Shown here: piece after piece, positions 13,369-48,542 of the stretch
How the letters are laid out: each line of letters opens with the position of its first letter
Position numbering within the stretch: the stretch's first letter is position 1
Assembly (NCBI GenBank): GCA_036172245.1
Contig: JAYWIR010000013.1
Location: 2,542,001 to 2,606,000 of the forward strand
DNA from: Raillietiella orientalis
Taxonomy: Eukaryota
DNA length: 64,000 nt
Direction of reading: 5' to 3'
Position numbers and translations under genes: made by a program
The notes under the pieces: generated by a model
Told to the model about the DNA's origin: nothing
Databases searched by the model: none
What the model saw: the letters and a program-made list of their open reading frames with translations, nothing else

Positions 13369-16300
13369 TGCGCTCGACAAAGTAATTAGTTAATTGTGCT
13401 CGTGTGTGCCCGGAGAGGGGAAGTTTTCCAGACGAAACTACAAAAGAAGCGGCGAGGAGATCGCGGCAAAAGACCTGCAGTGGTCCCGTGCAGCAAGACC
13501 AGATGCCAGGATGCAGGCACCTAGAGGAGGAGCGGAGAGAGCGTCGTCCCCCCTGGAAGCCATGGAGGTAACGTGCGGCAACTGCGAAGCGGTGGCAGGC
13601 ATGCCGACGATCGCGCCCGCGGCGGGCTTTGCTGCGCCGGCGGCGGCGATGCCAAGGGTCGTGCCCGCGGAGACGACGGCGGAGGTCGTGCCCGCGGCGG
13701 CGACGCCGAGGATCCTGTACGCGGCGGGGAAGGTCGCGCCTGCGGCGGCAATGCCGAGGTTGCCGCCCGCGGCGGCAACGGTGGCGACGTCGAGGGCTGC
13801 GCTCGCGGCGGCGGCGTCCCAGGCAGGACCCGCGGGCGTCCACGTGGTTCAGGGCGAGACGCCATCTTGTTCGGCTGCGGCGGCGCAGCCCTTTTCCTAT
13901 GCGTCGGTGGCGGCTGGACAGGCGAGTGTCCACCCACCAAGAAAATTCGGGAAGCCGCTATGCGGTAAAGTCCAAAAGGTGGATCGGCCGATCGTGGAGT
14001 TAGGGCCGAATGTGAAGCTCATCATTTTGAAGACTGGGCTCATCAAATTCAATAATATCACGGAGGTGTATCTATCCCTTGATAAAACGGATATCAATTC
14101 TGATCGCATACAGGCGATCATACCGGCAAATAACGGGTTCATAGTCTTCACAGACTGTGAAAATATTATAGAGCGATTGATCCAGAAGGGGATCAATATA
14201 CACAGGAGGATGGTTTGTGGTATTGCCGAAATGCCATACACAACCGTTTTTCTGAACGGCATCTCCATCCTCACACCGCAACTAACGGTGTGGAACTTTT
14301 TGGAGCAGTATGGGGAAGTTCTGGACCTTGAATTCCAGAACTTCTCTGGAAATATATTTTCTGGCGACATGATCGCCAAAATCAAGTTGAAAGAGGGAGC
14401 TGTGATCCCTGGATTAGCCGTTCTTGACGAACAATCCCAGGGAATGAACGTGCGTTACCGGCAACCGCCGATATTCTGCACCGGGTACAAGCAGTTCGGC
14501 GACAGGGCCGGTGCTTGCCCAACGTGTCGTCGTTTCCGCTGCGGCAAAGTAGGACATCAAGTCCGAAACTGCCCGCAGCTGGTGGTGTGCTCCTTCTGCA
14601 AGAAACACGGACATGCCAGATGGAGCTGTCCGGACTTTGCAACTGCAGAAGGATTCGAGGTCTCTCTCCCGTGAGAGAGAGAAACACCAAGCAGGCGGAA
14701 CAGCATGAGAAGGGAGGAAGGCCGCAGAAGGTGAAAGATGCCATCCCGGAATTGGAAGACGGCTTCATACAGGTAGGGAAGAAAGGAAAGAGGAGGATGC
14801 TCGTCAAGGAGCAAGAAGCTCCTCTTATACTGGAAGGTGAAGAGCAAGAAGGCGAGAAGATGGAGGTAGCGCAAAAAGGCGCGGAAGAAGAAATAGCCGA
14901 AGCCACTCCGGTGTCCCAGGAAGCTCTGCAATCTACGGAGGAGCTGGCACCACTGGCAAATGAAGTCCTAGAGGTGCAGAGCGGTCACCAGCAAGAGAAA
15001 ATCTTGCAGAAGATCCGCAATGCACTGGAGAAGGCCAACCAGGTTTATGAGGTCACCGAGCGCGTGAAGATAGAGGAACAGCTTCTCGACGTAAAGGCGA
15101 ACTTCTACGCCAAGGTCGAGATAGAGACGCCATCTCGAAAACTGATCGCGCGGGCCGAACACTCGACGGAAGAGGCGGAAGTAACCGACCTCACCGGAAC
15201 AGAGAGTGACGCCGGCAGCGAGAAGCCCGCTGCTTCTTCATTGTCTGGAAGAGCACGCTCTCTCAGACAGAAGAAGCTCAGGAAGGCCAAGAAATAGGAC
15301 TTCCCCTTTTATGGTCTCTTCCCTTTCGACCGCCAGGAGGCTGAACATCGCTTCCTGGAATGTAAACGGTATGGTCGACCAGGGAAAAAGAAGAAGGATT
15401 GTGCGGACCATCGCCCAACAAGACATAGTGTGCCTGCAGGAGACCCACAAGATGGGTCTCGAGATTAGTCAGCGAATGGAACGGCGATTCAACGGGCAGA
15501 TTTTCGTCAGCGAGGGAGAACAAAACACGCAGGGTGTGGCGGTCCTAATCAAGAACAACTTGGCCCCCACTATTCTGGAAGTGTTCTGTCCCCAACCCGG
15601 ACGAATCATCGGCGTGCGACTGGCCTTTTCCGCTACTGTTCACCTCATCCTGGTGAACGTGTACGGGCCGCACAGGCTAAATCATCGTTGTGCGGAGGCG
15701 CTGCATGCAGCACTCCGTGAAAAGGTTGCTTCCGAGGACGTCGTGATTGTTGCTGGCGATCTCAACATATTGGATGAGATCACTCACTCCGAAGATGCCA
15801 GAGGAAGGACGGCGTATCGGCGGTTATCCGACGAGTTCGGACTGGTGTAGCGAACTGCAAGTCACAAGCCGATCGATCACGTCCTGCACAGCACCGAACT
15901 TGGGAATCGCATCCAGGGTTTTCGAGACATTATGACCACGGTGTCCGATCACCCCCTGGTGCGGTTTTCCCTAAGAACGGAGAATCCTCGGCGGAGGCAA
16001 GGCACCAGGGCGGCGCTCATCAGCATGCCCGCCTGGTTGGAAACCCATCCCGGACATCAGGCTGTCCTGGAGACGATTCTGAAGGCAACAACAATCCGAA
16101 GAGTCGCCGACTGGGACAGCCTGAAACACAGGATACACCTGTTTGCAAACATGCTGTTCGGAGATAGGCGCTTGAGGCAGGAGGCGTACCAGGAGCTGAA
16201 CATCCAAGATCGCTCACTCTCAAAGTACTTCGATCAGTAAGAGAGTCGGTACGTCCTCAATAACATAAAAGGGGAAGTCGTCGTGCTGGAGAAGAGAAAT

Positions 16301-18970
16301 TTGGCAACAGATATCTTCTGCATCCAGTACGACGGTCAAAAGCGACAGTCGTCTGAGGACATCGTGGATGCATTTCAAAGGCATTACACGAAACACTTTA
16401 GGCGACAACATCTCTGTCGCTCTAGTCAACAGGCCTTTCTGAGCTACGTCGAGAAGAGGACCGACGATCTACAGCGGAACAGACTGGAGGAGGAATTCTC
16501 CGAAGACGAGGTGAAGACTGCGTTTGGTCAACTACGCAAGGACGTGGCCGCGGGCCCTGACAGCGTACCCATCACTCACTATCAGCGGTACTTGAATGCC
16601 TACCTGCGTTTGTTCCACCAGTTGACCGTCTGCATCCGCGAAGAAGGAAGACTTCCACAGTCCTTCTACGAGAGTCGGATGAGATTGTTGCCAGAAGGAG
16701 GCGACCTCACGCAGGTCGATCAATGGAGGCCAATCTCGATCCTGAACTCCGATGCCAAGTAATTGGCGAAGATCTGGTCCAACCGCTTAGGCAAGGTCAT
16801 GTCGAGGCTCATCTCTCCGGTCCAAACGTGTGCAGTCCCTTCACGTCACATGTCGGACAATGTCAACTGTGCCCAGGCCACCGTCGGACTCAGCCGATAC
16901 GTCGCCGAGAATCTGGCGCTGGTGTTCACTGACATGGAGAAGGGTTTCGACTCCATCGACCATGGGATGCTGCTGAAGGTTCTGGAGAAGCTAGGCCTTC
17001 CGGAACACTTCAGCAACTTCATGAGGGTGGTACTCCAGAACCAGTACTGCCGAATCAAAATCAACGGCCAGGAGACGGCAGCAATCCGGATTGAACGGGG
17101 AGTCCGGCAGGGCGATTCGCTAAGTCCGATGCTGTTCGTCATCTACATGGAGGCGTTGTCGTCCTTTATCGAGAAGAGCGGACGACTGCAAGGCATAACC
17201 ATCGATGGCCAGCGTCTTACCCATCTGGCATACGCTGATGATCTACTCTTTTTTATCAAGGGAGAGAGAAATCAACGAGCGTTTCTGGATGTGGTAGATC
17301 TGATGGATGAAGGCCTCGGTCTAAAGATCAACGCCCAGAAAAGCCAGCTCTTGCCCGTTGGAATCCTCGATCTCTCCACTCTAGCGGGGAGAGGATTCCG
17401 AACGGTGGACAAGGCCAAGTACCTGGGTGTCTACATTGGCGACGTCTCCGCGTCGAAGCTATTGTGGACCGAGATCCTAGGGAAAACGGCCAAGGAAACA
17501 GCCAAATACACCCGAACGGACCTTGGAATGAAGCGAAAGGCCAACATATGGAACGGAGTACTCCTTCCAAAAGTGCTCTTCGGGGCGGCCTTCGCGAGGA
17601 TGAACAAGGGAACCACGAGGGAGTTCGACAAGCTGCAGAGAAAAACACTGTGTGGCCACTATCGCCCAAGAGTCCGACTAAAACCCCTGTGTCGTCCCAG
17701 GGAAGAAGGCGGTTTCGGGATGAAGTCGCTTGCACACTCCATAGAAATCATGGATACGCGACACATCCTCGACATTGCCACTCACTGGGATGACTGGCCG
17801 TATGCGGCGCACAGGGCCTACGCGTTGTTGTGGAACAACTCGAAAGGCCTGATGATTGCGCTGCTAGGCCGAGCAGGTGAATGGAAAAAAATCGACCCAA
17901 CCTGGACGAGGAAGCAACGGCTGGTGCGAAAGCACAAAATCAAGATCGTGCCGAGAAGTAGGGAACTCTGGCAGGACGACTCCATCCTGGTGATCCCTTG
18001 GATGCTTCCTGTCCCGCCGGACACGAGAAGCTGGATCCACCAGCGGTCCAGAGTTACCCTTCAACGAATCCAGGAGTGGAAACGAGGACGCTACCTACAT
18101 CACACTCGTATACTTAGGTATATAGAGATGATGTTAGGAAGGTTTACCCACATGACTCGCGAAGTGTGGTTCAATCACAACGACTTTGCGTGGTCCAGGG
18201 TAACCAAAACAAACCTCCGAAGACTAATTCAAGAAGAACACAGTGATATTAGTGCCCTCCAGGAAGCCGCCGATCGCTACGGGAGTGACCGGATCAACCT
18301 GTTAGCGATTGGCACGACGCTCTGGAGGAGTGACCTTCCGCCGGGCACCCAGGATGACCTCCTGATGTTTTATCATGGAGGAATCCAGAGTGGGTCCCGA
18401 TTGCAGCACTACACCGGAAGAAGGGAAGATCGAGACTGCACAGCATGTGGAGACATCGACACGAGAGTTCACGTCTTGACGTGTCCCACATTGCTGCATG
18501 ACTGGCTGATCCTGAAAAGGATCATCGGACTCACAACCAGGTCCGTAATGGAGATCCTCGCCGAGATGTTTCAGGGGGATGGTAATGTTCCCTGTTACAA
18601 TCCCATGGTGAGGACGACCATCGCCCTCTTCATCACCGCCATACTTGTGCGGTGGTGGAAAATGAGGAAAGCCAGAAGAGCCGCACCACCGATGGAGATC
18701 CTACAAGGGCTCCTGAAGAGGGAAATCGGCATTAGAAACTGTGGGAAAATCCAAGCCTGGACGTACCGATTCATCCTGAAGAGGATAGAAGACGACGCCC
18801 GGGACCAAACAGCAGGAAACCCACCATGAGTGCAAAACTTGTGAGAACCCAAGGACTTCATAGTGGTAAAAAAAGTGCTAATGGTATGGATGAGATTGAA
18901 GTGTGAATGTTTTTATAGAAAAATTTTAGAAAAATAAATTTACCCCACCCCTCGTGGGACTTGGGGAAAA
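13369..18970 (+). mobile_element. Family A LINE, second copy (inverted duplicate of 1166-6771)
   Basis: ORF1 13511-15297 (one frameshift); ORF2 15311-18829 with stops at ~15848, 16238 and 16760; same 3' junction into family B ORF1 as copy 1. Confidence 0.93.
15311..18829 (+). pseudogene. Family A ORF2 (APE+RT)
   Basis: Same motifs as 1300-4817; YADD at ~17230. Confidence 0.93.
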
Positions 18971-28772: not shown

Positions 28773-31740
28773 TCAGTGCGTTCTTTCGATCGAGAGTCGA
28801 TCGGCGAACGCGAAACCATCAGCCGGCGCTGAAGCTGCGGAGCCACGATTGGACGTCTTCAGCCGTCGCTCCTGAGTTTCCGTTTTCCCGCGTTTGTGTT
28901 GTCGGTGATGGTTTAGGCAGCAATGCCTGACTCCGTCACCAGTGAGGATCACTGGTGATGGAGTCACCTGACAGTGTACCCATCACTCCATCACCGGAGA
29001 TGGAAGTGGAGGCTCCCGCCCCCACGGATGCGCCCCCGGCCCTACACAGGGCTTGGAACGCCGTGGCTGCCGCACCTACGCCGGCGGCTATGGAAGAGAT
29101 GCACGCCTACCTGGAGGAGGGGTATAACCCGCCCCTCTTATATAAGGTAGGAAATCTGTATTCACCAGAGAGCGCGCGTGCCTTTTCACAGGCGATGCGC
29201 GCTCTTGGCGTTAATAAAGAGGAGCTTCTGGCAATGTCCGTCAGAAGCGGGGTCAATTTGCGGAAGTGATATGCAAAGAGGCAACTCTTGCGAAGAGACT
29301 TCCAAGAACCCCTGTAATGATGAGGAGCCGGAAGCTTCTCCCGGTGACGGAAGAACGGTAGGTGATTATTCACCTGACCGGCATTACGTTCCGCATGACC
29401 AAGGAGGCCGTCCGGAACGAGCTAGATAAATTCGCCACTGTGCACACGCTGTGGGGCAAGCCCACTCCGTTGATTACGACGGGGTGCTTGGCGGCATGGC
29501 TACAGCGAGTCACCATTCGCGAGGGATGCGCGTTCCCGCACAAACTGTGCGTCAACGGTGAATCCGTTGACTTATGGTACGTGGGGAAACCGAAGTTCTG
29601 CGGCTGCTGCAGCAGTTTTGGGCACCTCAAGATGAGGTGTACGAGCGTGCAGTGCCAGTAGTGCAAAGAAACGGGACACAATCGTCATCTGTGCCCCCAA
29701 AACATAGTCCCTGTCGCGTCCTCCCGAAACGCGACAAAGCGCGCGGCTAAAAAACGCAAGCTAGAAGCGCGAGCTGCAGCTAAGGAGGTAACCTCCGCCA
29801 CCAAGGCGAAGGCCATCTCCGAGACCACGGTAGAAAACGCAGAGAAGGTTCAGGGCGATGGCCAAGAGCCAGGTTGGCAGGTCAACTCCAAAAAAAAAAT
29901 TCCTAAAAAGGAAAAGAACGTCCCGAAACGGAGCGAGACCGCTCCGCGCCGCGAAAAAACAAAAGGTTGCAAACTCGTTGTTGAGCGGATTCCCATCAAC
30001 GAGTGAGGCACTCTCGAACTCGCTGCTGCCACGCTCAAACCTCCGATGACAGTCAACAAGGAGGGGAGTGAGGCGGTGGCGTCCGTCACCGAGCCCACGC
30101 TCGATGACGTAGCTTTCCAGAGAGCGGCCCAGGCGCTCGCTGACTCGTTGCAGTCGGCCCTTCCAACGCTGGCAAGACCGTAAGGCGTCCGGCTTCCACC
30201 CAGGAGTCGGTAACTTCCGTCACCGAGGTGGAGGCCGGAAACGCAGCTTCCATGTCAACGGACCCAGCCGGAAGACGGCGCAAGTCCAAGAATCCCCGGA
30301 AGATCGTCTCCCCAGTCGAAGGGGAAGAGATGGCTTCCGTAAGCGATGGTGCCAAGAGCGTGGGAAACTCTGGGGACCCGTCGCCCTAGAAACTCCCGCG
30401 CCGCGACACGGAGATGGAGGGGGTAGAAGCCGTTGTCGAGGTGCCTGAGGTGTCTGACTCGGCAGTCGTCCCCATGGACCTTCCCAGCACCTGCCCCGCT
30501 GCAGGTGCCGCAACGCAACATTCCCAGCCATAATGCTGGCAATTGCCTCTCGCCGTCTTCTGCTGACCGCCTGTAGGAACGTCAACGGGGTGAGCGACGA
30601 TGGCAAGAGACGTGACGTGGCCGCCACCCTGGCATCCTTCCATCTGATGCTGCTGCAGGAGATCCACGTGATCTCCGCAGATCATGCCCGGGAGATCGAA
30701 CGGATCTCGGGTGGGCGGCTGCTGCTGTGTCGCCATCCTCCTTCGGCCAGCCATCGAGGCCACAGTTTAGGGTGTACGGTTTGATTCCGCCGGTCGCGTG
30801 GGCCAGCTGACTCTCAGCTGGTCCGACTCCATCGACCTGGTCGTCAGCAACCTGTGCGCTCCTCGCGGTAGCGAAGCGTCAAAGGTCAAGGCAAAAGAAT
30901 TCTACCTTGCCCTGAGACGTGATTGACTGTCCGAAGCAAACGTTCGCAAAGCGCACCTGATCGCAGGTGACTTCAACCTGCGCCTGCTGTCAGGTACGCC
31001 GGATACACAGAAGGACCGCGTCAACGAGTTGTGCGCAGAAATGCGCACACGCAACTTGTTGGCCGCAGATACGGACATGGATCGCAGCACCGATCACGTG
31101 TTTCTTGACCAGCACCTATGCTCTCGCGTGGGCAGGTGCTGCAAGTTACCGTCCGAGCTGTCCGACCGTCGCCCGATCGTGATCGAGGTTCATCCGCGCA
31201 ACAGGGGTCCCCCTTGTCAGCGTGGCTATTGCCAGAGGACTGACTAAAGCTCCCGGACGCGGCGTAACATCTCCGCGCGTTCATACGGAGCTTCAGGATG
31301 CGGACACTCCAGGACTGGACCGCTTTAAGCGGTCGGTCTAGGTGTTCTGCGACCAGTTCCCTCTCAACCGCCTACCTGAGAGATTTGGGGAGGAAGCACG
31401 TAACGAAAGTTGCAACCTTCAGGCCCGACGTTACGCAAGAATCCCCGATTTTCGCAGGTTAGCGGATTATCGAGCGGGAGCCGAGAGGCAAGCCTGGCAA
31501 TCCGGGTCGGCCAGCTTGCTGGACGACCAGGGTCGAGAACACTCGCCTCCTGCTCAGAAGCAAGGGATTGTGCGCAGCTTTTACTCCTTCGTGTAGCAAG
31601 AGCGCATCCGAAATGGGATGTCGCATGACTCCTTCAGAAAGATGCTCCAGCGATTGGGGATGAGAGGACCCTCGACGAACCTTTCACGATGAGCGACTTC
31701 ATCTCGGCCATCAGAATGCTAAAGAGACGCAAAGCTCCTA
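28773..31740 (+). mobile_element. Family C LINE, 5'UTR through APE and linker, decayed, 3'-truncated
   Basis: ATG 28923; AYLEEGYNPPLLYKVGNLYS; TAATG 30531-30535; LQEIH, AGDFN; ends at KRRKAP. Confidence 0.85.
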
Positions 31741-31775
31741 GCTAAAATAATTTCCCACGGTGTCGGATGATTACT

Positions 31776-31807
31776 GCGCAATCTGGGTAATGCTGATCAG
31801 GTTGTGC
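31776..31807 (-). other. CRESS-DNA virus origin-like stem-loop with nonamer CAGCATTAC on the strand opposite Rep
   Basis: Stem gcgcaatctg/caggttgtgc (10 bp, two transition mismatches); 12-nt loop whose reverse complement contains CAGCATTAC (one mismatch to CAGTATTAC); TATA-like tatataaaa and Rep ATG (31911) downstream. Confidence 0.65.
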
Positions 31808-31996
31808 TCAAGAAAACTATGCAGTTAAACTATGCAGTTAGGCAGTATATAAAACCACCGATTACATCCGCACCAGTCCTACCTCCAGTGAATTAGCTCA
31901 TATTAGCACCATGCCGTACGCACTATTCTTCAATTTATGCCTCACTGTGTACCTACAGGGAAAAAGAATTCAAGGCCATCAAACAGTGTTGCCGAT

Positions 31997-34900
31997 CCAG
32001 GGTTTTCGCGACATTCCCCACCTGCTGTCCGATCACCCTTTGGTTCGGTTTTCCCACCGCACGGAAAATCCTCGATGGCAAAAGGACACCAGGGCAGCGC
32101 TCACCTGCACGCCCGCCTGGTTTGAGACGCATCCCTGTCACCAGAAGGTCATCGAGGCGATTCCACGGTACACCATCATCCGCAGAGTCGCCGACTGGGA
32201 CAGGTTGAAGCATAGGATCCATCTTTTCTGCAATATGCAGTATTTTAGCAAGCGACTGAGGCAGGAAGCGTACCAGGAGCTCAACATCCAAGACCACTCC
32301 CTCTCAAAGTACTACGATAAGTACGAGAGTCGGTACGTCTTCCAAAATGTGAAAGTGGAGGTCGGCGTGCTGGAAAAGAAGAATCTGGCGACGGAAATCT
32401 GTATCCAGTACGGCGGCCAGAATCGACACACGTCAGAAGACATCGTGGAAGCATTCCATCAGCACTACGAGAAACACTTCCGAAGGCAACACCTGTGTCA
32501 GTCTATGCAACGCACTTTCCTCAGCTACCTCAAGAAAAGGACAAGCGATCTCCAACGTGACAGACTGGAGGATTTCTCCGAAGATGAGGTGAAAACGGCT
32601 TTTGGACAACTGCGGAAGGACGTGGTAGCGGGCCCTGACAGTGTACCCATCACGCACTATCAGCGCTATCTGCACGCCTACCTGTGCTTGTTCCATCAGC
32701 TCACCCTCTGCATCCGCGAAGAGCAGTTGAATTCATAAAGGAAGTAACAGGCACGTATATATCAAAACATTGGAGAGTACTGAGCTATTGGGAAAGGTTA
32801 TATGGCTATCTCGAGCCTAAAAGTTCAAACGAGGTAATTGATGAAGTTGAAGATTGGCTACACACCGAAAAAGATATGGAAGCTGCAATGGGAGAGTGTA
32901 ACTTCCTTAATGGGATGTACAAAGCAACCAAGGAGATAATGATTAAAGAATTTATCCACCCAAACGAATATGTGACCCTTGATGAGTGGACAGCAAAATG
33001 TGGATGGACAAGGAGGAAGGCAGGTGACAATTTGGCACAAACAGTGGACATAGAGGGAAGAAGACATCCGCGAAGAAGGCCGACTACCAAAGTCCTTCAA
33101 CGAGAGTCGGATAAGATTGCTACCAAAAGGAGGCAACCTCACGCAGGTCGCTCAATGGAGGCCAATCTAAATCCTGAACTCCGACTCCAAGTGGTTGGCG
33201 AAGATCTGGTCCAACCGCTTAGGCAAGGTCATGCCGAAGCTCATCTCTCCGGTCCAGACATGTGCGGCGCCCGGACGCCACATGTTGGACAATGTCAAGT
33301 GTGCCCAGGCCACCGTGGGACTCAGCCGGTACGTCGGCGAGGACCTGGTGCTGGTGTTCACGGACATGGAGAAGGGTTTCGACTCCACCGACCATGGGAT
33401 GCTGCTGCAGATTCTGGATATGCTGGGCCTTCCGCAATACTTCAGCAACTTCGTGAGGATGGTACTCCAGAACCAGTATTGCCGAATCAAGATCAACGGC
33501 GAAGATACGGCAGCTATTAGCATAGAACGGGGAGTCCGTCAGGGCGATTCGCTAAGTCCCATGCTATTGGTCATCTACCTGGAGGCGCTGTAGTCGTTCA
33601 TCGAGAAGAGTAGATGCCTCCAAGGCATAAACATCGATGACCAGCGGTTCACCCACCTGACGACGCACCCGCTGACGACCTTCTCTTCTTCATCAAAGGA
33701 GAACGAAATCAGTGTGCGTTCATGGATGTGGTGACGCTCATGGAAGAAGGCCTGGGATTAGGAATCAACGCCCAGAAGAGCCTACTTTTGCCCGTCAGAA
33801 TCCTGGACCTCTCCGCACTCACGGGGAAAGGATTCCGAACGGTGGACACGGCCAAGTACCTGGGAGTCTACATAGGCGACGACTCCGCGTCGAAGTTGCT
33901 GTGTACGGAAATCCTGGGGAGAACGGCCAAGGAAGCAGCAAAATACACTCGACTGGACTTTCGGATGAAGCGAAGGGCCAACCTGTGGAACGCAGTACTC
34001 CTTCCAAAGGTGCTCTTCGGGACGGCCTTTGCCAGGTTGAACAAAGAAAACAACAGAGAAGTGGAAAATCTGCAGAGGAAAACCCTCTGGGGGAAATACC
34101 GTCCCAGGGTTAGACTGAAACCCTTGTGTCGTCCCAGGGAAGAAGGCGGCTTCGGGATGAAGTCGCTTGCACATTCCATGGAAATCATGGATACGCGACA
34201 CATCCTGGGAATCGCTACCCACTGGGATGACTGGCCGTATGCGGCGCACAGGGCCTACGCGTTGTTGTGGAACAGCTCGAAAGGTCTGATGACTGCGCTG
34301 CTAGGCCAAACAAGGGAATGGAGAACCATCGACCCCACCTGGACTAGAAAACAAAGGCTAGTGCGAAAGCACAAGATAAAAATCGTGCCCAAAAGTAGGG
34401 AACTCTGGCAGGAGTCCATCCTGGTGATCCCATGGATGCTTCCGGTCCCCCAAGACACGAGAAGCTGGATCCACCAGCGGTCCAGAGTTACCCTACAACG
34501 CATGCAGGAGTTCAGAAGAGGAGTATACCCACATCACACTCGTATACTTCGGTATATAGAGATGATGGTGGGTAGGTTCACCCATATGACCCGCGAAGTG
34601 TGGATCAACCACGATGACCTCGCGTGGTTCAGGGTGACCAAGAGGAACCTCCGAAGAATGATTAAGGATGAGGACCAAGACACCAGTGCCCTCCAAGAAG
34701 CCGCCGATCGCTACGGCAGTAACCGTTTTAACCTGTTGGGGATTGGCACGACACTCTGGAGGAGTGACCTTCCGCCGAACACTCTGGACGATCTCCTGAT
34801 GTTCTATAATGGAGGAATCCAGACCGGGTCCAGATTCAAGCACTTCACGGGAAAACGGGAAGATGAAGACTGCACGGCATGTGGAGACATCGATACGAGA

Positions 34901-35400
34901 CTACACATCTTGACGTGTCCCACTTCGCTACGCGACTGGCTGATCCTGAAAAGGATCATAGGACTCAACAACAGGTCTGTGATCGAAATCCTCGCCGGAA
35001 TGTTTCAGGGAGATGGTAATGTTCCCTGTTACAATCTCATGGTGAGGACGACCATTGCCCTCTTCATCACCGTGATACTTGTACGGTGGTGGAATATGAG
35101 GAAAGCCAGGAGAACAGGAACCCCTATGGAGATCCTACAAGGACTCATCCGTAAGGAGATCGGTATCAGGAACTATGGACGACTCCAAGCCTGGACGTAC
35201 CGATTCATCCTGAAGAGGATTGAGGACGACTCCCGGGACCAAACATCTGGAAACCAACTCTAAATGCAGAACCCCTTTGAGTATCCCAACGGACCTTCAA
35301 GTGAAGTGAAAGTGGTAATATATTGTGAATGGAAATTGTAGTATGAATGTTTAAAAATTGAAAAATACATTTACCCCACCCCTTGTGGGACTTGAGGAAA
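31997..35400 (+). mobile_element. Family A LINE, 5'-truncated, with ~19-bp TSD
   Basis: atcaaacagtg(t/g)tgccgat at 31978-31996 and 35401-35419; RT and C-terminus to 35263; same 3' hairpin. Confidence 0.93.
32723..33064 (+). other. Endogenous viral element: toti-like RdRp fragment inserted in the LINE RT with a 12-bp TSD
   Basis: catccgcgaaga at 32711-32722 and 33065-33076; stop-free frame HWRVLSYWERLYGY..EVEDWL..TLDEWTAKCGWTRRKAG, resembling the N-terminal motif region of toti-like RdRps. Confidence 0.7.
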
Positions 35401-35519
35401 ATCAAACAGTGGTGCCGATGCAACTGCATCTTTGCCTGCATTGGCAAAGAAAGAGCTCAAACTGGAACTCCGCATCTACAAGGATACATCCAACTAAAAG
35501 AACCCAGGATTCTTTCCAT

Positions 35520-36084
35520 TCAGCGTACGCGGACGAACTGCTGCTGCTGCTCTCTATGTCCATCCTGGCTTCGGCTGTCTAGGATTTCTTCGACCTGCTC
35601 AGTCTGGAAAAAAGACTAAGAGGCCGTACGGCACTAAGGCACTGCAGGACGCGAATAACCTGGAACAAGATCTTGACGGCCTCTCCGTTCTCAGCTGGAG
35701 TCAGCGCGTCGAGACCGTCTCTAAAGACGTTTCCTTGGCACAGCGTTTGACTAACACCCCGCTGAATGTAGATGGCCGCAAGATCTTGCCGGTTTCATGG
35801 ACCGCTCCGTAGAGGTCCATCTTACCGGCATGACTAACCGGATGCCTCAATCTGCCGTTAGCGCAGAATTAAAAAAATACGGGGAGGTGCACGCATTGTG
35901 GCCGATGCCCACCATCTTTGAAGGCGACAATAGCCATTCCGGGGGACAGGCCGGGACGCGTGTCACTGTTAAGGAGAATTTTGGCCTTCCCCACAAACTG
36001 GAGATTGCCCAGGAGTGCGTCGACCTATGGTAAGTGGGAAAACCAAGGTATTGCGGCAACTGTAATGCTGTAGGACACCTCCGC
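35520..36084 (+). pseudogene. Small RT fragment (AYADELLLLL) followed by a family C-like ORF1 fragment
   Basis: VHLTGMTNRM..LPHKLEI..GKPRYCGNCNAVGHL. Confidence 0.7.
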
Positions 36085-37650
36085 ACGGCGATCGGCACGT
36101 TCCGCAAAGGCAAGTTTCAGGGCAAGTTTCCGGCGAGCCGCAACGGGCCGCGGTTTGGAACGCCTTCGCGGCCCCCATCCTACGCCCCTCGCTTTTTGTT
36201 TGCCCCGCCCCCGTTGAAGTGAAGAGGACAAAGGAACTCCTCTGCATCGCCCTTTGGGGCAAGGGGAGGCCCCGAGTCCCACTGAAGGACTTGTGCGCTC
36301 CGCGTCGCGACGGCGGTCTAGGCCTCCTGACGCTGGAACGCGAGGAGATACAGCTGCGATGGCGCACCCTCGCCATCGCAGCGAAGCTGTGGAGCACCCC
36401 TTGGTGCACTCCGGCCCGTCTACTGGCCAGCCGTGTGTCCCGGTGCGAGGGACTCGCGTCATTTCTTCTGTGCCGCGGCCGGAAGATCAGAAGATGCGGC
36501 CTACTGCTCGGGCGCATGGCAACCCTGGCCAGAGAGAACAGCTGGATGGTTTGCTGCCCCGCCAACTCCCCCGCCTTGCTGGAGGAGAACATCGGAACTT
36601 GGGCAATCGTAAACCAGAGGAGTCACGAGACGTGGAATCGTCTCCGATGCAGACCCTACGCCCCCTGCACGCTGAGGAATCTCCTGGAGAGTCCAGCAAG
36701 AAGCACGTGGGCAGAGACGACCTGCCTGGCTACGGCACTGCCCTTCCTGAGGAGGGCGCTTAACAGCAGCCGGACGCCAAGGTGGCAAGTCTCCTGCTGC
36801 ATCGAGGGACGGGAGAAGATGATGAGCGGCTCGACCATGGGTGAACTGGCGGATGCCACGACCCCGAGCGTCCAGCCTCGAGGAATTTTGAGATAGGGCG
36901 AGCTGCTCGCCATCCCGTTGGATGAGCTGAAGTGGCCCCCAGTGATGAAGAAACAATGCAGGTTGCTGCCCCTCAAGTGGCAAGAGTCGGCGTTGCTCCT
37001 GTTGCACTGGGGTCTACCCAGCAACGCACGCCGCTTCCACTGGACGAGGGGAGCTGTGGATCCTGCGTGTGCCAGGTGCGGGGAGCGGGAGTCGCTCCCC
37101 CACCTTATTGTGGATTGTGCTGCCCTCCGACCCCTCTGGGAACGGTTCGGGACAACCCTCGGGCTCCCTACGGGCAGCGCCCCCAGAGACGTTCTCCGGC
37201 TCCTTTTCGTGCGGGACGCTCTGCAGCCAGCCGCAGCCCTCGCAGCCCTGTGCTGCGTCCGAGGCATCGTGGCGGCCTGGAGCGACGCCAACAGCGAAGA
37301 CCGCGACACGAACGAGAGGGAAGTCATCCTGTATGCTGTCAGCTTAATGCGGAGAGCTGCTCGATGGCCCCACCTGGAAAATATGCGGACAGACCTCGAG
37401 GGCTTCCTTCGACGGATGGGCGCTCCTCACAGCGTCCAGTGATCCCTTCCCTTCCCTCCAAACTCTTTTTGTTTGTTTATTCCTTTTATTTTTCCTTTTG
37501 TTTTTCCCCCATCCCCTTTCGCTGTCGGGGAGTGCCACGCCGGGCTGCGTACCGGTGTTCCGAGAGGTCCCGTGTCTAAAGCCGCAGTGGGGCCTTATAC
37601 CACGTATGTGAGTTTTTCAAATAAACGCCCCGGGCGTACCCGGGTGATAA
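36085..37650 (+). mobile_element. Family C-like LINE 3' part (ORF2 C-terminus, 3'UTR, terminal hairpin)
   Basis: LCAPRRDGGLG; CARCGERESLPHLIVDC; aataaacgccccgggcgtacccgggtg at 37620-37646. Confidence 0.85.
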
Positions 37651-37778: not shown

Positions 37779-40700
37779 AAGCCTATGTAGCCCAGGGCTA
37801 CAAGCCTACTCTCCGCTATAACGTAAGTGGGGCAGGTAAGGCTGGGGAGGAGTTCGCGGACGAACGCTACCGTGTGGGAGTGCGAGAAGAGGACCTCATA
37901 GCACTCATGCCTGTTCCAGCATTGGGCTATGTGAAGGTCCGATGCAAGCAGGCTGCACTTGTGCAGACGCTCCTCCGCACTCCTTTGTCCATCCGCGGAA
38001 AGAAAGTTTTTCCTTCAGCGATGGACGAGTCTTTTGTCGTTGTTCTCTCGGACATAGAGCCGGAGATCAACGACAAACAGTTGATGGACGCGTTGGCGAA
38101 ATTCGCAACCGTTCATGCGGTGTGGAGGAAGGAGAGTTCTTACAGAAAATTCCCTTCCGTACACACAGGATTTGCTGCGGTTAGGGTAACCGTTCCTAAC
38201 CGCCACACGCTGCCTGCCACGCTACAGGTCAACACGGCACGGTCGTTCACCTGTGGTTCGTTGGCAAAACTCGTGCGTGCGAGCAATACGGCAAAGAAGG
38301 GCATCGGGGTAAAGAATGCCCTTCCCCGAAGTGCCGCTACTGTAAGGAGTCCGGGCACGAAATTAGAAAGTGCCCGGACATAAAAAAAAAGGAGGCTGCT
38401 AGACTCCGGCGTGCCAAAGAGTGCGCAGAGGAGAAAACAGCATCCTCAAAAAAAAAAAAACAGGGAGGCTCGCGAAAGGCCGAAGATAAAAAAGGCCCGA
38501 GCGCGGTCTCAAAGTTGGCTCCCTCAGCATCAAAGCCCCAAAAGGGCAATCGCACGGCAGGGAAGCCATTTAAAAAAGGGCGAGAGGGTTCCGCGCGTAC
38601 CGTTACTGTCCCAGTAGCTGATCGCGGAAACGCTACTCGCGAAATGGGATCAGTAAAACCAGTCGCTCCGTGCGACAAGGCGAAAGGAGGACACGCGAAA
38701 GAAAATTGCGCGGTAACCGTCTCCTTGAGCGCTCTGTCCATTTCGGAGGCTTCAGTCGGAAACCTCACGAAGGCGTCTGCAGGTCCGTCGGAAAAAGCCA
38801 ACGAAAGCAGCGTTGCGTTGCCTGAAAACACGCAGCAACCAGCTGCATCCTCTCCAACAAGACAGTCGCGGAGCAATCTCCCGACTGCCGCGGAGGCCGC
38901 TCTTTCGCCGCCTTTCAAGGGTGCAGGGAAAGCTGCGCCCCAGGCGGTTGGGGAGGAACGTTCGGAGGCGTCCCTCACGAAAGTCGAGGAGCGCCCCGAA
39001 CGAACGGACGGTGGGTGGACGGTTGCGGTGAAAGAAAGAAAAATAAAATCTCCCAAAAATTCTCCGCAACCTAGTTCCAAGAGCCTCTCCAAGGCAAAGA
39101 ACAGTCGCGCGATGCAGAAGACTCGCGCGAAGGTTCCCTCTTTCGCTGCAAAGGCTACCGCCGCGGTCGCGAATGGCGCGAAAGTTGCGATCGCCAGGGA
39201 CGATGTTCCGGTGATTGCGAAAAAGGAAATGTCCGCGGTCCCATTCGCGAGCACCTCCAAACCGAAAGAGCAGGTGAGTCGCGAAGCGCCTGCGCTTCAA
39301 TCAGACTCTCAAACGGAGTCTGAGATCACCGACGCACGTCGGATCACACGCGCGGAAGCCGTAGCGCGACGGGCTAAGGCCCTGAGGCGCGCAGCGCAGG
39401 CCGCGAAGGAGCGAGAGCTCATCCCGGAGCGTCAAACGACGTTACGCGGAAATGAGCACTCGATTTCGTGCAGCACCAAGGAGGACGGTGGCGACCGTGA
39501 TCTCCAGTCAGCAGTGCTGCTCACCGTCCGCTCGCCGGGTAAAGCGGGCAAAATGCCGCCAACTTCCCAGCATTAATGCGGGGAATCGCGTCTTCTCGTC
39601 GTCTGTTCGTTACGTCTTGGAACGTGAACGGACTGCAGAATGACGAGAAGAGGCGCTTAGTAGCGAACGCCCTGCGCCCCTTCGACCTCGTGCTCCTGCA
39701 GGAGATTCACGTAATCTCCGACGAGCAGGCAGCCGAAATCGAGGAGCGCGCAGGCGGAACGCTACTTTGGCGGTGCGGCGGCGCACACACGTGCGGCGTC
39801 GCGTTCCTCGTAAGAGGAAAAATGGCGGAAGCGGTGCGTAGTGTTCGTTTCGATGACGACGGACGGATAGGCCAGCTTGTCATCAAGTGGTCCGAGTCCA
39901 TCGATCTCGTCGTTACGAACGTCTACGCGCCGAGTGGCTCTCGCTACCTCGAAGAAAGAATTGCGCTCTTCGAGGAAGTGAAATGCCACTGGTTCAACAA
40001 CTCCGGATCCCAAGTGGCGCACCTCGTCGCAGGGGACTTCAACGTCCACCTGCTCTCTGACGATTGGAACTGCCCGAGGGAGCGCACGTCGGCCATCGAG
40101 ATGTGCGCCTCAGTACGCGCTTCCAACTTGATGGTCGGCGTACCTGAGATGGAAAGGTCGCCGGATCACATCTTCCATGATAAAAACCTGCACCCTCGTG
40201 TGGGAAGAAGAGGAAGATTGTCGTCCGCTCTCTCTGACCATCACAGGTTGGAGTTCGAGCTCCTTCCGCCAGGCAAGGGGCCTCCGTCAAAGAACTGGAG
40301 GATGCCAGCGGATTGGCTTAGCCATCCGGAGGCGGCGGATCATCTCCGTCAGCACCTCCGGACCTTCGTCATCCGCGAACTCGCGGACTGGGATCATTTA
40401 AAGAGTTCAGTCCTCGAGTTCTCTGAACGGTTTCCCTTGCATCGGCTTCCGCGAGGCTTTGGAGAAAGGGTCGCCAACAGCAGGACTTTCCTGCAGGCGC
40501 GCACCTTTTCGAGACGCGCGGATGTCAGCCGGCTTGCGGAATACAGGGCGAGAGCCGAGCGCCAGGTCTGGCAGTCAGGAGCATCTTCCCTGCTCGATGA
40601 AAAAGGCCTGGAATGCTCGGCACCAGCCGGTATTCGCCGCATCATAAAAAGTTATTACTCCTCGCTATACGCGGAAGCACCAACGGAAATTATCTTTTCG

Positions 40701-43485
40701 GAGATACTGCTTTCCAGGTTGCTGCCGTAGTTAGCGAAGAGGAACGCTCACGTCTCGACGTGTCCTTCACGGAGGAGGAAATTTCCTCCGCAATAGCGAA
40801 GCTCAAGAGACGAAAAGCGCCAGGCGAGGATGGGCTGCCTGCGGAGTTTTATCAGTGCTTCGCGGGGGAGCTCGTTCCCCTGGTGCATCGCCTCTCGTCG
40901 CTGATGAGGGTTTCGGGGGATGTCCCCAACTCCTTCCGCTCAGCGAGGGTGCGTCTCCTTCCGAAAGGTGGAGACGCACGCCATTTAAACAATTGGCGTC
41001 CGGTCACTTTGGTGAACTCGGACGTCAAGTTGCTCTCCAAGATGTGCGTTGCGCGCCTAGGGAGAATCGCGCCGTCCTTGGTGAGCCCGGAGCAGACTTA
41101 CGCTGTTCCCGGGAGATCCATGGACGCGAACCTCCTGTTTGCACGCACCTGGATGCAGCTGCAGGAGCGCGTAGCGCAGCAAAGTCGATCCGTGATGAAT
41201 GCCACTGCTAAAGGCACACGGTATCGACAGAAGCGGCAAGAGGGTACGCCGGGTGCCTTGGCGGTCGCAGTCGACTTCCACAAGGCGTTCGATTGCGTGA
41301 ACCAAGCACTCCTATTGGAGCTCTTGGAACGCCTGGGTCTCCCGGCTCAACTCCTCAAGTACTTGCGCGCATGCTGGCGCCACGCGCTAACTTGCATTTG
41401 TTTTAGCGGCTGCCACGTGTACGGTATTCCCGTGCGCAGGGGCATCAGGCAGGGTGACAGTTTAAGCCCGTTGCTCTTCAGCATGTTCTTTGAGTTGGTG
41501 CTGAGAGCGTACAGGCTGACGCTGGAATACCTGCCTAGCTCTTGCCCGGGAACGCCTGCCGTGGCTGCCTATGCGGATGACCTGCTTCTTCTGCTCCCCA
41601 TGTCCACCCCGGCGTCCAGTGTCCAAGATTTCTTCGACCTGATTCGTCGGGGAGCGGGCGTGAGTGTGAACAGAGAGAAGAGCGTGGTCGTTCCTGTGGG
41701 CGCGTCGTGGGAGGGGCAGTCCGACCGGATCCGCCTGGGGATCCCCACGGCGGCGTACTTCAAGTACTTGGCGTTCCGTTGGCCGACCTCGGCGCTGCCG
41801 AGCGTGGTCGAACTGCCTTCATAAGGCCGAGTTGGCCGCCAGCCCGTTCATTAACGGCAAGTTCACCTTGCTGGAACGGGCGGCTATTTGGAACACCTTC
41901 GTGGCCCCCCTCCTCCGACCCCTCTTTTTTGTCTTGGAGCCCCCCTATGCGGCCAAAGTGCGGGCATAACGCCTGCTAAGGAACGCTCTCTGGGGTCCGG
42001 CGCGATCCAGGATCCGCCTGAAAGACCTCACTGCTCCACGTCGGGATGCTGGGCTTGGCATCCTGACGATGGAGAGAATCGGACTGCAAGTGCAGTTCCG
42101 GATGCTCGCACTTTGTGCCGAGCTATGGACTTCCCCCCTGTGTGCGCCTGCGCGCATCCTCCTGAGGTGTGCAGGCAGTGAAGGATTACTTTCTTTGGTG
42201 CCTGGCTTGCGCCACAGGAAACAGGGATTTGGCTATCCTTTGAGGAAAATCGCCACCCTATTGGAAGCCAGTACGTGGATTACCTGCCGCCCAATGAACT
42301 ATAATGCTTGGAAGCAGGAATCCATTGATTCGTGGGCTGCATTCTTAGGAATGAGCCGTGAAGATCTTCGCCCCTTGCGTCGATTCCACCCTTGGTCACT
42401 CCAAGATGTCATGCAGGACGAGGTGAAGCTTTCCTCCTTGGCCGCCACCCCCCTTGCCGAAGCACTGTCTGCCCTCGAGGCTCGAGATTACAGTAGCCAG
42501 CCGGCAAGGTGGGAGTTCTCCTGCACCATTGCAGGAAGAGCAAAACCAGTTGGCGAATGGACCATGAGCGAGCTTGCGGATGCCGCCACTCCTCTTGCTA
42601 CACCAAAAGGGTTTCTTCGGTGGGGAGAAGCTCTTGGTGTTGCCCCCGAAGAACTTATAGTTCCTCCCTGGTGTTTGGACGGTTCGGTGTTTCCCCTTGC
42701 ATGGAAGCAAGACGTTTTGCTTTTCTTGCACTGGGGATTGCGCTACAACGAGCGGCGCCACCGAGTTCCCGGTGGGGTGGCTTCTACCTACTGTGCCCGG
42801 TGCGGAGCGACGGAGTCGTTCCCACACCTTGTTATGGACTGCGGTGCACTCCAGGAACTGTGGAGGAGGCTAGCAGCAGCTCTCCCGTCAACAGGAGACA
42901 CCGCTCGAGAAGTGCTGCGACGGTTCTTCCAGACACAAGGACTTTCGATGGCTGCGACGATTTCCACTGTTGGTTGCATCCGCGCCATCGTCACGGTCCG
43001 AGACGTGCTGGAGAATACTGGACAGCAATGTTGTGTCACCAGGAAGGCAGCTGACTTCATCAGGTCGGCAGCTGGGTTGCGACACTTATATGAAGACACA
43101 ACGGAGGAGCTAACCGGTATCCATCGCCGGATCAGCAACGGCTTAGAACGACGAAATCGGTGATCCGCCCTCATTTTATTTTTGATTGGTTTTTTTGTTC
43201 TCGCGTCCTTTTCCCTATACGCTCCGCAGTCCTTTTGGTGCTAGAACTTTTGAGTTTCCCGGTGAGTGCGGAGCAATACCAAAGTTCCCTGGCCCACTCC
43301 TCCCATGTAAATTGTTTTTTTTTTTTTTTTTTTTTTGGACTCCCCTCAGTCGTCCGTGTTCTTCCGTTTTCCTGGCCTGCGTGCCAGTGTTGAATCTCCG
43401 CTGCAAGTCTACATAGTCGTGGGCTGGAAATAACTATTTCTAGCTCGTTTATATAAAGAAACGTCCCGGCGCGACCGGGTAAAAA
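37779..43485 (+). mobile_element. Family B LINE, slightly 5'-truncated, inserted into an APE fragment (GDFNVR) with a 14-bp TSD
   Basis: attt(t/c)aacgttcgc at 37765-37778 and 43486-43499; ORF1 to 39576; TAATG; ORF2 39576-43163; 3' hairpin cccggcgcgaccggg + A6. Confidence 0.93.
39576..43163 (+). pseudogene. Family B ORF2 (APE+RT+Cys motif), frameshifted near 40710 and 41775
   Basis: All APE and RT motifs present; CARCGATESFPHLVMDC. Confidence 0.95.
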
Positions 43486-47670: not shown

Positions 47671-47755
47671 TTAATTTTCAAACTGAAGATGTTTAGATAC
47701 ACACACAAAGATCTCTCAGTTTTGAAATATTGCAGAGACTGAATTATTAAGAAAA

Positions 47756-48542
47756 ATGGACAAATTGAACCCGGAGGAAGTAGAAAAATTAGTCAAAGAA
47801 ATTCAATCAACTTTGGTGTTTAATGATGAAATGGTAACTTCCATCAGACAAAATATAAATGATTTTGTTTATGAAAGTTTTGAGCCTAAAAGAATGGCTG
47901 TTATGATATGGCACACGATTCAGGGGTATGCTCTTAAATCTAAAAAAGAGGATATCTTGATAATGATTATGTTAGCTTTGGAAAGAGGGAATAATTTAGA
48001 CAGCATGAGAGAAAAGATTAGTGAGCTGGTCTTGATGCTCTTTTTAAAACATACAAGTTCGTGTCTAACCCCGGTAAGAGCAAGGATGCAACAATGCTTT
48101 CAAGAGTGTCATTGTTCTTTCCTTGGTTGACTTGTGAGATGTGTTCTCACATATTATCACATACAGTTTCTGCCTATCTCTTAGACAACTTAATATCTGC
48201 CATTTACCCTAGGCAAATGATGACAAGTGCATTTGCAAATAGGATACCCATAGAAACTGACAATGCAGAAAAGAGCACTGGAATTGATAAGATAGATCTG
48301 CTTATCTTTTACAACAGCTTGAAGTTACCCAGACAGTTTCAAAGATATTCCCAAATACAACCAACACAGATCTAATCTCTAAAATTCGGGTTTATACAGA
48401 TTCAGGTGAAGCAAATAATTACATTCCCAATGCTGACAGAGTACCCTATATGATTAAGTGAGGTATTTTTGACGAAAATTGGACTCTGTCTACTGATGTG
48501 GTCAAAGCAGCATCAGCTTCAGAAAACGAACTTGCATTTTGA
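47756..48542 (+). pseudogene. Endogenous viral element: Phenuiviridae (phlebo/tenuivirus-like) nucleocapsid N, full length but frameshifted
   Basis: DFVYESFEPKRM, DILIMIMLALERGNN, TMLSRVSLFFPWLT, YPRQMMTSAFA, GIFDENW..VVKAA match phlebovirus N motifs; genome-terminal ACACAAAG at 47703-47710. Confidence 0.85.

Follow-up and report, generated by a model that had tools for sequence, protein, structure and literature searches.

How does a piece of a circular Rep-encoding single-stranded (CRESS) DNA virus come to lie inside a retrotransposon, and was it copied from viral DNA or from viral RNA? The question is raised by a stretch of 64,000 nucleotides from Raillietiella orientalis (assembly GCA_036172245.1, contig JAYWIR010000013.1, positions 2,542,001 to 2,606,000 of the forward strand), here called the window. 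At 31745..35505 of this window, an initial annotation had placed a CRESS-virus origin and a Rep gene that is split by a long interspersed nuclear element (LINE), which in turn carries an insert from a double-stranded RNA (dsRNA) virus. These three levels are indeed present. The total now comes to four, as the viral piece itself sits in a further LINE. In the simplest reading, the nesting runs from an outer element, LINE-B', through the CRESS piece and an inner element, LINE A, to a piece of a toti-like virus. The outer limits of the viral piece shift slightly: the non-LINE stretch starts at about 31757 and, after the interruption by LINE A, the similarity to Rep ends at about 35518.

The locus is a dead endogenous CRESS-DNA virus fragment of about 340 nt (without LINE A), and nothing in it is functional today. 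Its content would be the origin, the rep promoter region and roughly the first 63 Rep codons, captured on balance from viral DNA. The surrounding window is LINE-rich and eukaryotic. Its stop-to-stop frames of at least 110 aa match the Pfam families RVT_1, Exo_endo_phos and zf-CCHC, in addition to two matches to Tenui_N. The Pfam scans covered 179 of the 191 such frames; the other 12 lie in 31842-36893, and five of these were scanned separately.

The motif II segment of Rep

The part that identifies the virus lies to the right of LINE A:

35420..35518 (+), Rep motif II segment, ...CNCIFACIGKERAQTGTPHLQGYIQLKEPRILS (Pfam Viral_Rep, PDB entry 7kii_A and our own Rep profile)

That Rep resumes here with ...GKERAQTGTPHLQGYIQL was already read in the initial annotation and is confirmed by matches in Pfam and PDB. 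The frame 35362-35619 matches Pfam Viral_Rep (PF02407) with an E-value of 4.3e-6 and 27.3 bits, against a curated cutoff of 26, whereby residues 24-50 align to profile positions 25-51. A single PDB sequence, 7kii_A, is matched by the 42-aa stretch that starts at 35401 (E 3.1e-6). This is the Rep nuclease domain of Muscovy duck circovirus, as described in an excerpt of PMC9973303.

An additional Rep profile was built from 65 Rep open reading frames (ORFs) of at least 200 aa, taken from 128 IMG/VR loci that had been selected by the motif II peptide GTPHLQGYI. It scores the right piece at 48 bits, the only credible match among the 2319 six-frame pieces of the window. The runner-up (E about 1) is a 12-aa string inside LINE A. 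This profile is biased towards the motif that chose its members; neither the Pfam nor the PDB match depends on it. A motif III-like NTAYCRKDGSYA on the minus strand (32244-32179, E about 0.9) lies inside LINE A and was for this reason taken as chance.

Motif II (GTPHLQGYIQL, with HLQG) is intact in the right piece. Motif III with the catalytic YxxK and the superfamily 3 (SF3) helicase were not found when the Rep profile was run over the same 2319 pieces, which span the whole 64 kb. No cap (cp) gene is left at the locus. With about 63 codons in all, the Rep piece is a truncated fragment and not a gene.

The segment is 46-64% identical to many unrelated CRESS Reps and matches those of either nonamer arrangement equally well. 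At 40 aa it is too short to be assigned to a genus or family, and phylogenetic placement was dropped for the same reason. Word-based protein searches with the Rep piece gave no match, and a related-locus search with the 85-aa frame returned one locus (L001), which matches residues 10-28 only.

LINE A and its target-site duplication

Rep is interrupted by an element that can be delimited to the nucleotide:

31997..35400 (+), LINE A, 5'-truncated, without the endonuclease part, degraded by stops and frameshifts (blastn; RVT_1, E 1.5e-13)
31978..31996 (no strand), left copy of the target-site duplication (TSD), 19 bp (sequence comparison)
35401..35419 (no strand), right copy of the TSD, 19 bp, with G for T at the one mismatch (sequence comparison)

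In blastn, 31995-32722 and 33065-35401 align to two other copies of LINE A in the window, at 15911-18970 (+) and 4217-1166 (-), with 78-84% identity. Both of these extend upstream into an Exo_endo_phos domain, so the copy in Rep is 5'-truncated. Such a truncation is the usual outcome of target-primed reverse transcription. The 3' terminus is common to the two other copies. A cluster search with the LINE A tail returned generic zf-RVT/RVT_1 LINE clusters only.

The split of Rep by a LINE with a 19-bp TSD, as proposed in the initial annotation, holds to the nucleotide. The duplication ATCAAACAGTG[T/G]TGCCGAT matches at 18 of 19 positions and abuts the ends of LINE A exactly as the two other copies define them. 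The duplicated sequence is itself Rep coding sequence and reads IKQ[C/W]CR. Because of this, the left and right flanks were once contiguous, whatever the similarity of the left flank to known Reps. LINE A inserted by target-primed reverse transcription at about Rep codon 23-28, at a later time than the capture of the virus, and duplicated 19 bp of Rep.

The probable N-terminus of Rep, decayed

The contiguity across the TSD brings the left flank into the viral piece:

31757..31996 (+), left part of the virus-derived piece, with origin-like and promoter-like regions and Rep codons 1 to about 28 (TSD contiguity)
31911..31996 (+), N-terminal part of Rep: MPYALFFNLCLTV with a decayed motif I and, after a frameshift near 31950, TYREKEFKAIKQCCR (read-through profile score)

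None of the LINE copies in the window resembles the stretch 31757..31996. Its ATG at 31911 begins MPYALFFNLCLTV, in a frame that differs from that of ...YREKEFKAIKQCCR (IKQCCR). The initial annotation had the Rep ATG continue to IKQ(W/C)CR; the positions stand, and the single frame gives way to two that are joined by one frameshift near 31950. With one X placed at the frameshift and another at the LINE break, the read-through sequence scores 53.0 bits against the Rep profile, a gain of 6.6 over the 46.4 bits of the right piece by itself. Only 2 of 400 random 135-nt stretches that were treated likewise score as high. Across the frameshift, NLCLTV.TYREKEF aligns with the motif I region rwcFTlNNYteee of the profile. 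Motif I (FTLNN-like) is expected about 20 residues upstream of motif II, and the spacing found here is correct.

Three points speak against this assignment. With either frame taken alone, the left piece has no Pfam match to Rep. The gain depends on a profile from genomes that were selected by the GTPHLQGYI motif. Finally, one of the two winning controls scores 80.7 bits and is probably the Rep piece itself. The left piece is read as the decayed N-terminus of the same Rep with less support than the right piece has. As a separate observation, the Rep ATG opens a frame of 276 codons (31911-32738, +) that extends without a stop into the 5' end of LINE A; the two frames probably agree by chance.

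The origin-like and promoter-like region

Upstream of the ATG, three features occur within a short distance of each other:

31776..31807 (-), origin-like stem-loop, a 10-bp stem with 8 pairs and a 12-nt loop that holds the nonamer CAGCATTAC (unique in the window)
31814..31839 (no strand), iteron-like perfect tandem repeat, AAACTATGCAGTT twice, unit 13 nt, six nt from the stem-loop
31846..31854 (+), TATA-like box TATATAAAA, 57 nt upstream of the ATG (read from the sequence, without statistics)

All of these, including the minus-strand nonamer, the duplicated 13-nt unit and the ATG at 31911, were found at the places given in the initial annotation. The nonamer occupies 31787-31795 on the minus strand. 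In the stem, GCACAACCTG / CAGATTGCGC, 8 of the 10 positions pair; both mismatches are transitions, one of them CpG to TpG. A search of both strands of the window for a nonamer with at most one mismatch to NANTATTAC in a 10-bp stem with at most two mismatches returns this one site. The same search gives 33 matches in 100 Markov shuffles of the window (0.33 expected per window), which puts the expectation for the 170 nt ahead of the ATG (2x170 nt) at about 0.001. With a looser 6-bp stem, 6 sites are found in the window against 3.9 expected.

The repeat is the sole perfect tandem duplication with a unit of at least 10 nt in the window, where four have units of 8-20 nt. Direct repeats of at least 8 nt occur in 9 of 42 real CRESS origin neighbourhoods, compared to 10 of 210 controls and 15 of 457 window tiles, so they are about six times commoner beside real origins than elsewhere. 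The iteron pair itself has no match (0) in viral contigs. The position also fits. A canonical nonamer stem-loop lies no more than 400 nt from the ATG in 42 of 88 IMG/VR Rep loci with at least 150 nt upstream; 37 of the 42 have it on the same strand as rep and 5 on the other. In these 42 real CRESS genomes, nonamer and ATG are 31-310 nt apart, mostly 33-161, and the distance is 116 nt here.

Several results weigh against an origin. The hairpin alone reaches -0.8 kcal/mol, which is thermodynamically negligible today. Folding had been proposed as a check in the initial annotation, and the minimum free energy (MFE) fold of 31765-31815 does not use the hairpin (z -0.37; 71 of 200 shuffles fold equally well). 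Moreover, the search criteria were set only after the site had been seen. Taken together, the origin is probably real, and the reading of stem-loop, iteron-like repeat and TATA box as a viral origin with its promoter is moderately supported.

The viral piece within LINE-B'

Both outer ends of the viral piece adjoin LINE sequence on the same strand:

29257..31756 (+), 5' part of LINE-B': ORF1, endonuclease, linker and start of the reverse transcriptase (RT), ending ...KRRKAPS*NNFP (tblastn, alignment to three copies)
35519..35610 (+), LINE-B' resumes at the RT YADD box, AYADELLLLL (blastn of 35523-35597 to 41567-41641, 78.7%; alignment to two copies; tblastn)
35621..36084 (+), fragment of a foreign LINE ORF1, with a region like an RNA-recognition motif (RRM) and a CCHC knuckle, in sense (tblastn, best 50% aa identity to 23919-23689)
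36082..37418 (+), post-RT part of LINE-B', collinear with the reference copies (40% aa identity over 400 aa to the copy 41973-43133)

The end ...KRRKAPS*NNFP corresponds to KAPGEDGLP of three other copies. An anchored extension past 31756 scores 2 against one copy (46 of 300 controls score at least as high) and 0 against the two others, without collinear similarity. One local alignment, to 31779, would have LINE-B' continue through the stem-loop; it was rejected because the anchored extension has no similarity beyond 31756. The viral piece takes the place of about 727 nt of the LINE-B' RT, between collinear parts on the same strand. Further downstream, the ORF1 fragment, which comes from another LINE family, stands in place of about 218 nt of the same RT. 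Both LINE-B' flanks are about 40% identical (aa) to the same reference copies, which are themselves 80% identical to each other.

Going by these alignments, the simplest reading would be a single LINE-B' element with two internal replacements. Against it stands that no TSD was found for LINE-B' as a whole or for its downstream part alone.

On the LINE-B' side of two junctions (31737-31756 and 35598-35615), most of the positions that differ from other copies have G there and A here, e.g. AGCTAAAATAATT against GGCGAGGATGGCT. An explanation by editing was dropped, as the reference copies are too diverged to tell.

The toti-like RdRp piece within LINE A

The innermost level is found in LINE A:

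32723..33064 (+), fragment of a toti-like virus RNA-dependent RNA polymerase (RdRp), in sense, with an open frame and no poly(A) (HMMER; absent from the two other LINE A copies)
32711..32722 (no strand), left 12-nt repeat, CATCCGCGAAGA (alignment to LINE A copies)
33065..33076 (no strand), right 12-nt repeat (alignment to LINE A copies)

The dsRNA-virus insert recognized in the initial annotation is borne out. It measures 342 nt and is flanked by a perfect 12-nt duplication of the LINE sequence CATCCGCGAAGA. A HMMER search with the insert returns 48 proteins at E<=1e-3, and 10 of these reach E<=1e-10. The best match (E 9.4e-18, 41% identity) is to residues 115-218 of a 791-aa protein, whose relatives by name include Hubei toti-like virus 20 and Totiviridae sp. 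Fifteen of the matches were scanned by Pfam: 11 contain RdRP_4, two DUF4806, one a sub-threshold RdRP_1 only and one nothing. By these comparisons, LINE A carries a piece of the RdRp gene of a dsRNA (toti-like) virus.

The insert corresponds to about residues 105-220 of RdRps of about 790 aa on contigs of 6.7-8 kb, and is therefore internal to the viral genome. It covers the region N-terminal to the catalytic domain, and Pfam has no match on the insert itself. Word-based protein searches with the insert, among longer proteins, gave no match, and an Atlas search gave no lead (best score 0.77). The frame of the insert is open over 293 codons (32639-33520, +) and extends well past either end of the insert, in spite of nearby stops in the frame of the LINE itself. 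Weak tblastn matches of C-terminal parts of toti-like RdRps at 5924-6046 (+, E 0.002) and 38758-38997 (-, E 0.004) were obtained with 52 queries and are probably chance.

For an insert that is internal, in sense, open and without poly(A), two template switches of an RT fit better than classical retroposition. The piece would have been copied from viral RNA when the LINE RT switched templates twice, be it while this LINE A copy was inserting or already in one of its ancestors. The initial annotation had the order as virus DNA, then LINE, then totivirus RNA. The first step stands, with the TSD in Rep. The second is not established: the insert may predate, accompany or follow the insertion of LINE A into Rep. 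Its absence elsewhere is judged from two other LINE A copies in the window, 17-23% diverged.

The route of capture

It was argued in the initial annotation that the presence of an origin implies capture from the viral genome and not from Rep mRNA. This is likely but unproven. The viral piece begins 154 nt before the ATG and about 90 nt before the TATA box. As it holds the origin and the region upstream of this box, viral DNA is a better source than a normal Rep mRNA. The viral piece may have been captured in the repair of a break in LINE-B'. Alternatively, a polymerase may have switched templates onto viral DNA during the integration of LINE-B'. Viral DNA as the source, by either route, is somewhat favoured.

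Some observations point in another direction. The Rep, foreign ORF1 and RdRp pieces all lie in sense relative to their LINE, which favours a route through the LINE RT. In homologous coordinates, only 62-73 nt separate the break of Rep in LINE-B' from the insertion of the RdRp in LINE A, shortly after the RT domain begins. Such a coincidence is estimated, post hoc, at 1 in 20-40 by chance. There is also a precedent: endogenous circovirus Rep copies of carnivores are embedded in LINE-1 and were amplified with it, according to an excerpt of PMC6372831. Sense orientation, near break points and this precedent together suggest a route linked to the LINE RT, which could mean an RNA template.

In such an RNA-level capture, the RT would have left the LINE-B' RNA at the YADD region, copied a Rep-sense transcript from about codon 63 towards its 5' end, and returned near the start of the RT. 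The same process would have supplied the ORF1 piece to LINE-B' and the RdRp piece to LINE A. The origin-like features would then be due to chance, or a transcript that read through or started further upstream would have brought them along. Besides the common orientation, the neighbouring break points and the published LINE-associated circovirus Rep (PMC6372831, as excerpted), it is favoured by the RdRp piece, which must have been reverse transcribed anyway, and by the junction of Rep to LINE at about 35518, which is tight and without filler. Nevertheless, an ordinary Rep mRNA is not expected to include 154 nt upstream of the ATG, about 90 of them upstream of a good TATA box, with an unusual stem-loop and iteron-like repeats. 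Capture from RNA is possible, with clearly less than an even chance.

It could also be that only the Rep coding fragment is viral and that the 154 nt upstream are unrelated filler, with stem-loop, repeat and TATA box coincidental. The hairpin is not predicted by folding and amounts to only -0.8 kcal/mol, the nonamer is one position off the consensus, and the repeat occurs in no viral contig. However, the joint chance of the stem and nonamer (about 0.001) and a unique 13-nt repeat, within 100 nt of each other and as far from the ATG as real genomes show, is estimated at 1e-4 to 1e-3 even when post hoc choice is allowed for. This makes filler an unlikely source of the region.

A more general, and still more tentative, idea is that LINE synthesis in this genome has a point, shortly past the beginning of the RT domain, at which the polymerase is prone to switch and to copy nearby nucleic acid. 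LINEs would then record both RNA and DNA viruses, possibly as an archive similar to a Piwi-interacting RNA (piRNA) cluster. The template may have been toti-like RNA in one family and CRESS-virus DNA in another, possibly the virion single strand. The latter would explain the observed orientation.

Least probable are two separate LINE copies, where a larger or complete viral genome integrated, a 5'-truncated LINE landed in Rep at about codon 63, and an unrelated deletion took the 3' part of the upstream LINE and the viral sequence on the cap side (the remainder of Rep being lost or outside the window). In favour, the region is a dense mosaic of truncated LINEs and no TSD was found for a single LINE-B'. 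Against it, the flanking LINE parts are on the same strand and collinear, the upstream one stopping before the point where the downstream one starts, and they have diverged equally from the reference copies. Moreover, a TSD of Rep sequence was looked for past the downstream LINE without a find, and no further Rep piece occurs anywhere in the 64 kb.

Comparison with known systems

Each component of the locus is an already known phenomenon: endogenous viral elements (EVEs) derived from Rep, nesting of LINEs, and toti-like EVEs. The endogenous circoviral and CRESS Rep elements of vertebrates (CVe) are likewise rep-derived, degraded and fixed in host DNA, and their association with LINEs is already reported for carnivore CVe embedded in LINE-1 (excerpt of PMC6372831). 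Unlike in these elements, only about 63 N-terminal codons are present here, with the origin region seemingly kept beside them. Furthermore, the viral piece does not merely adjoin a LINE; it replaces an internal part of its RT.

The arrangement of the origin was called cyclovirus-type in the initial annotation. In the excerpted profile of the International Committee on Taxonomy of Viruses (ICTV), the nonamer (origin) of Cyclovirus is on the cp-encoding strand, opposite rep (PMC5656780). Provided that the origin is real, the locus agrees with this arrangement, as its nonamer stem-loop lies 5' of rep on the opposite strand with iterative sequences near (PMC5656780, same excerpt). In contrast to the Circoviridae consensus, the nonamer CAGCATTAC has C for T at position 4, the stem has two mismatches and there is no cap gene. 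The arrangement is not specific to Cyclovirus. It is shared by the geminiviruses. An assignment to Cyclovirus does not follow, as the piece of about 40 aa matches Reps of either arrangement.

The insert in LINE A resembles toti-like EVEs and the virus-retrotransposon chimeras that arise by RT template switching. As in these, an internal piece of the polymerase gene of a non-retroviral RNA virus has retrotransposon sequence on both sides and no poly(A). Among the database relatives of the insert, some are fusions with THAP or DUF4806 domains, which would be expected of endogenous copies. Known virus-retrotransposon chimeras mostly involve long terminal repeat (LTR) elements. Here, by contrast, a non-LTR element carries the insert, and 12 nt of this element are duplicated on either side of it. 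As a nested LINE insertion, LINE A is usual in its 5' truncation, 19-bp TSD and common 3' terminus, and unusual only in its target and its cargo.

A third viral fossil in the window

A further fossil, at 47726-48372 (+), resembles the nucleocapsid of a phenui-like virus. It contains one frameshift, and its two overlapping frames match Pfam Tenui_N (the Tenuivirus/Phlebovirus nucleocapsid family) with E 6.9e-6 (profile positions 2-76) and 1e-6 (84-154), both above the cutoff of 25. It is situated in an AT-rich stretch (32-37% GC) without LINE similarity. Fossils of three unrelated virus groups thus occur within 64 kb, all on one strand of a locus rich in transposable elements.

Similarity to LINE proteins in the window amounts to 29.6 kb on the plus strand and 8.3 kb on the minus strand; all three virus-derived pieces are on the plus strand. 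The strand bias of the LINEs was considered as the mark of a uni-strand cluster and dropped, as the elements are too few to mean much.

What the locus records

Few endogenous CRESS fragments retain the origin beside rep. If the origin is real, the locus would preserve both iteron and nonamer of a virus that is extinct or has yet to be sampled. The viral pieces at nearly the same place in two LINE families hint at template switching as a capture route, and the near-coincident break points of the Rep and RdRp pieces are the sole hint of anything more general. In the four-level reading, the locus is a record that is dated by its nesting: first LINE-B', then the CRESS piece, then LINE A with the toti-like piece aboard. 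It shows that the host encountered a CRESS-DNA virus, a toti-like virus and, as seen 12 kb off, a phenui-like virus.

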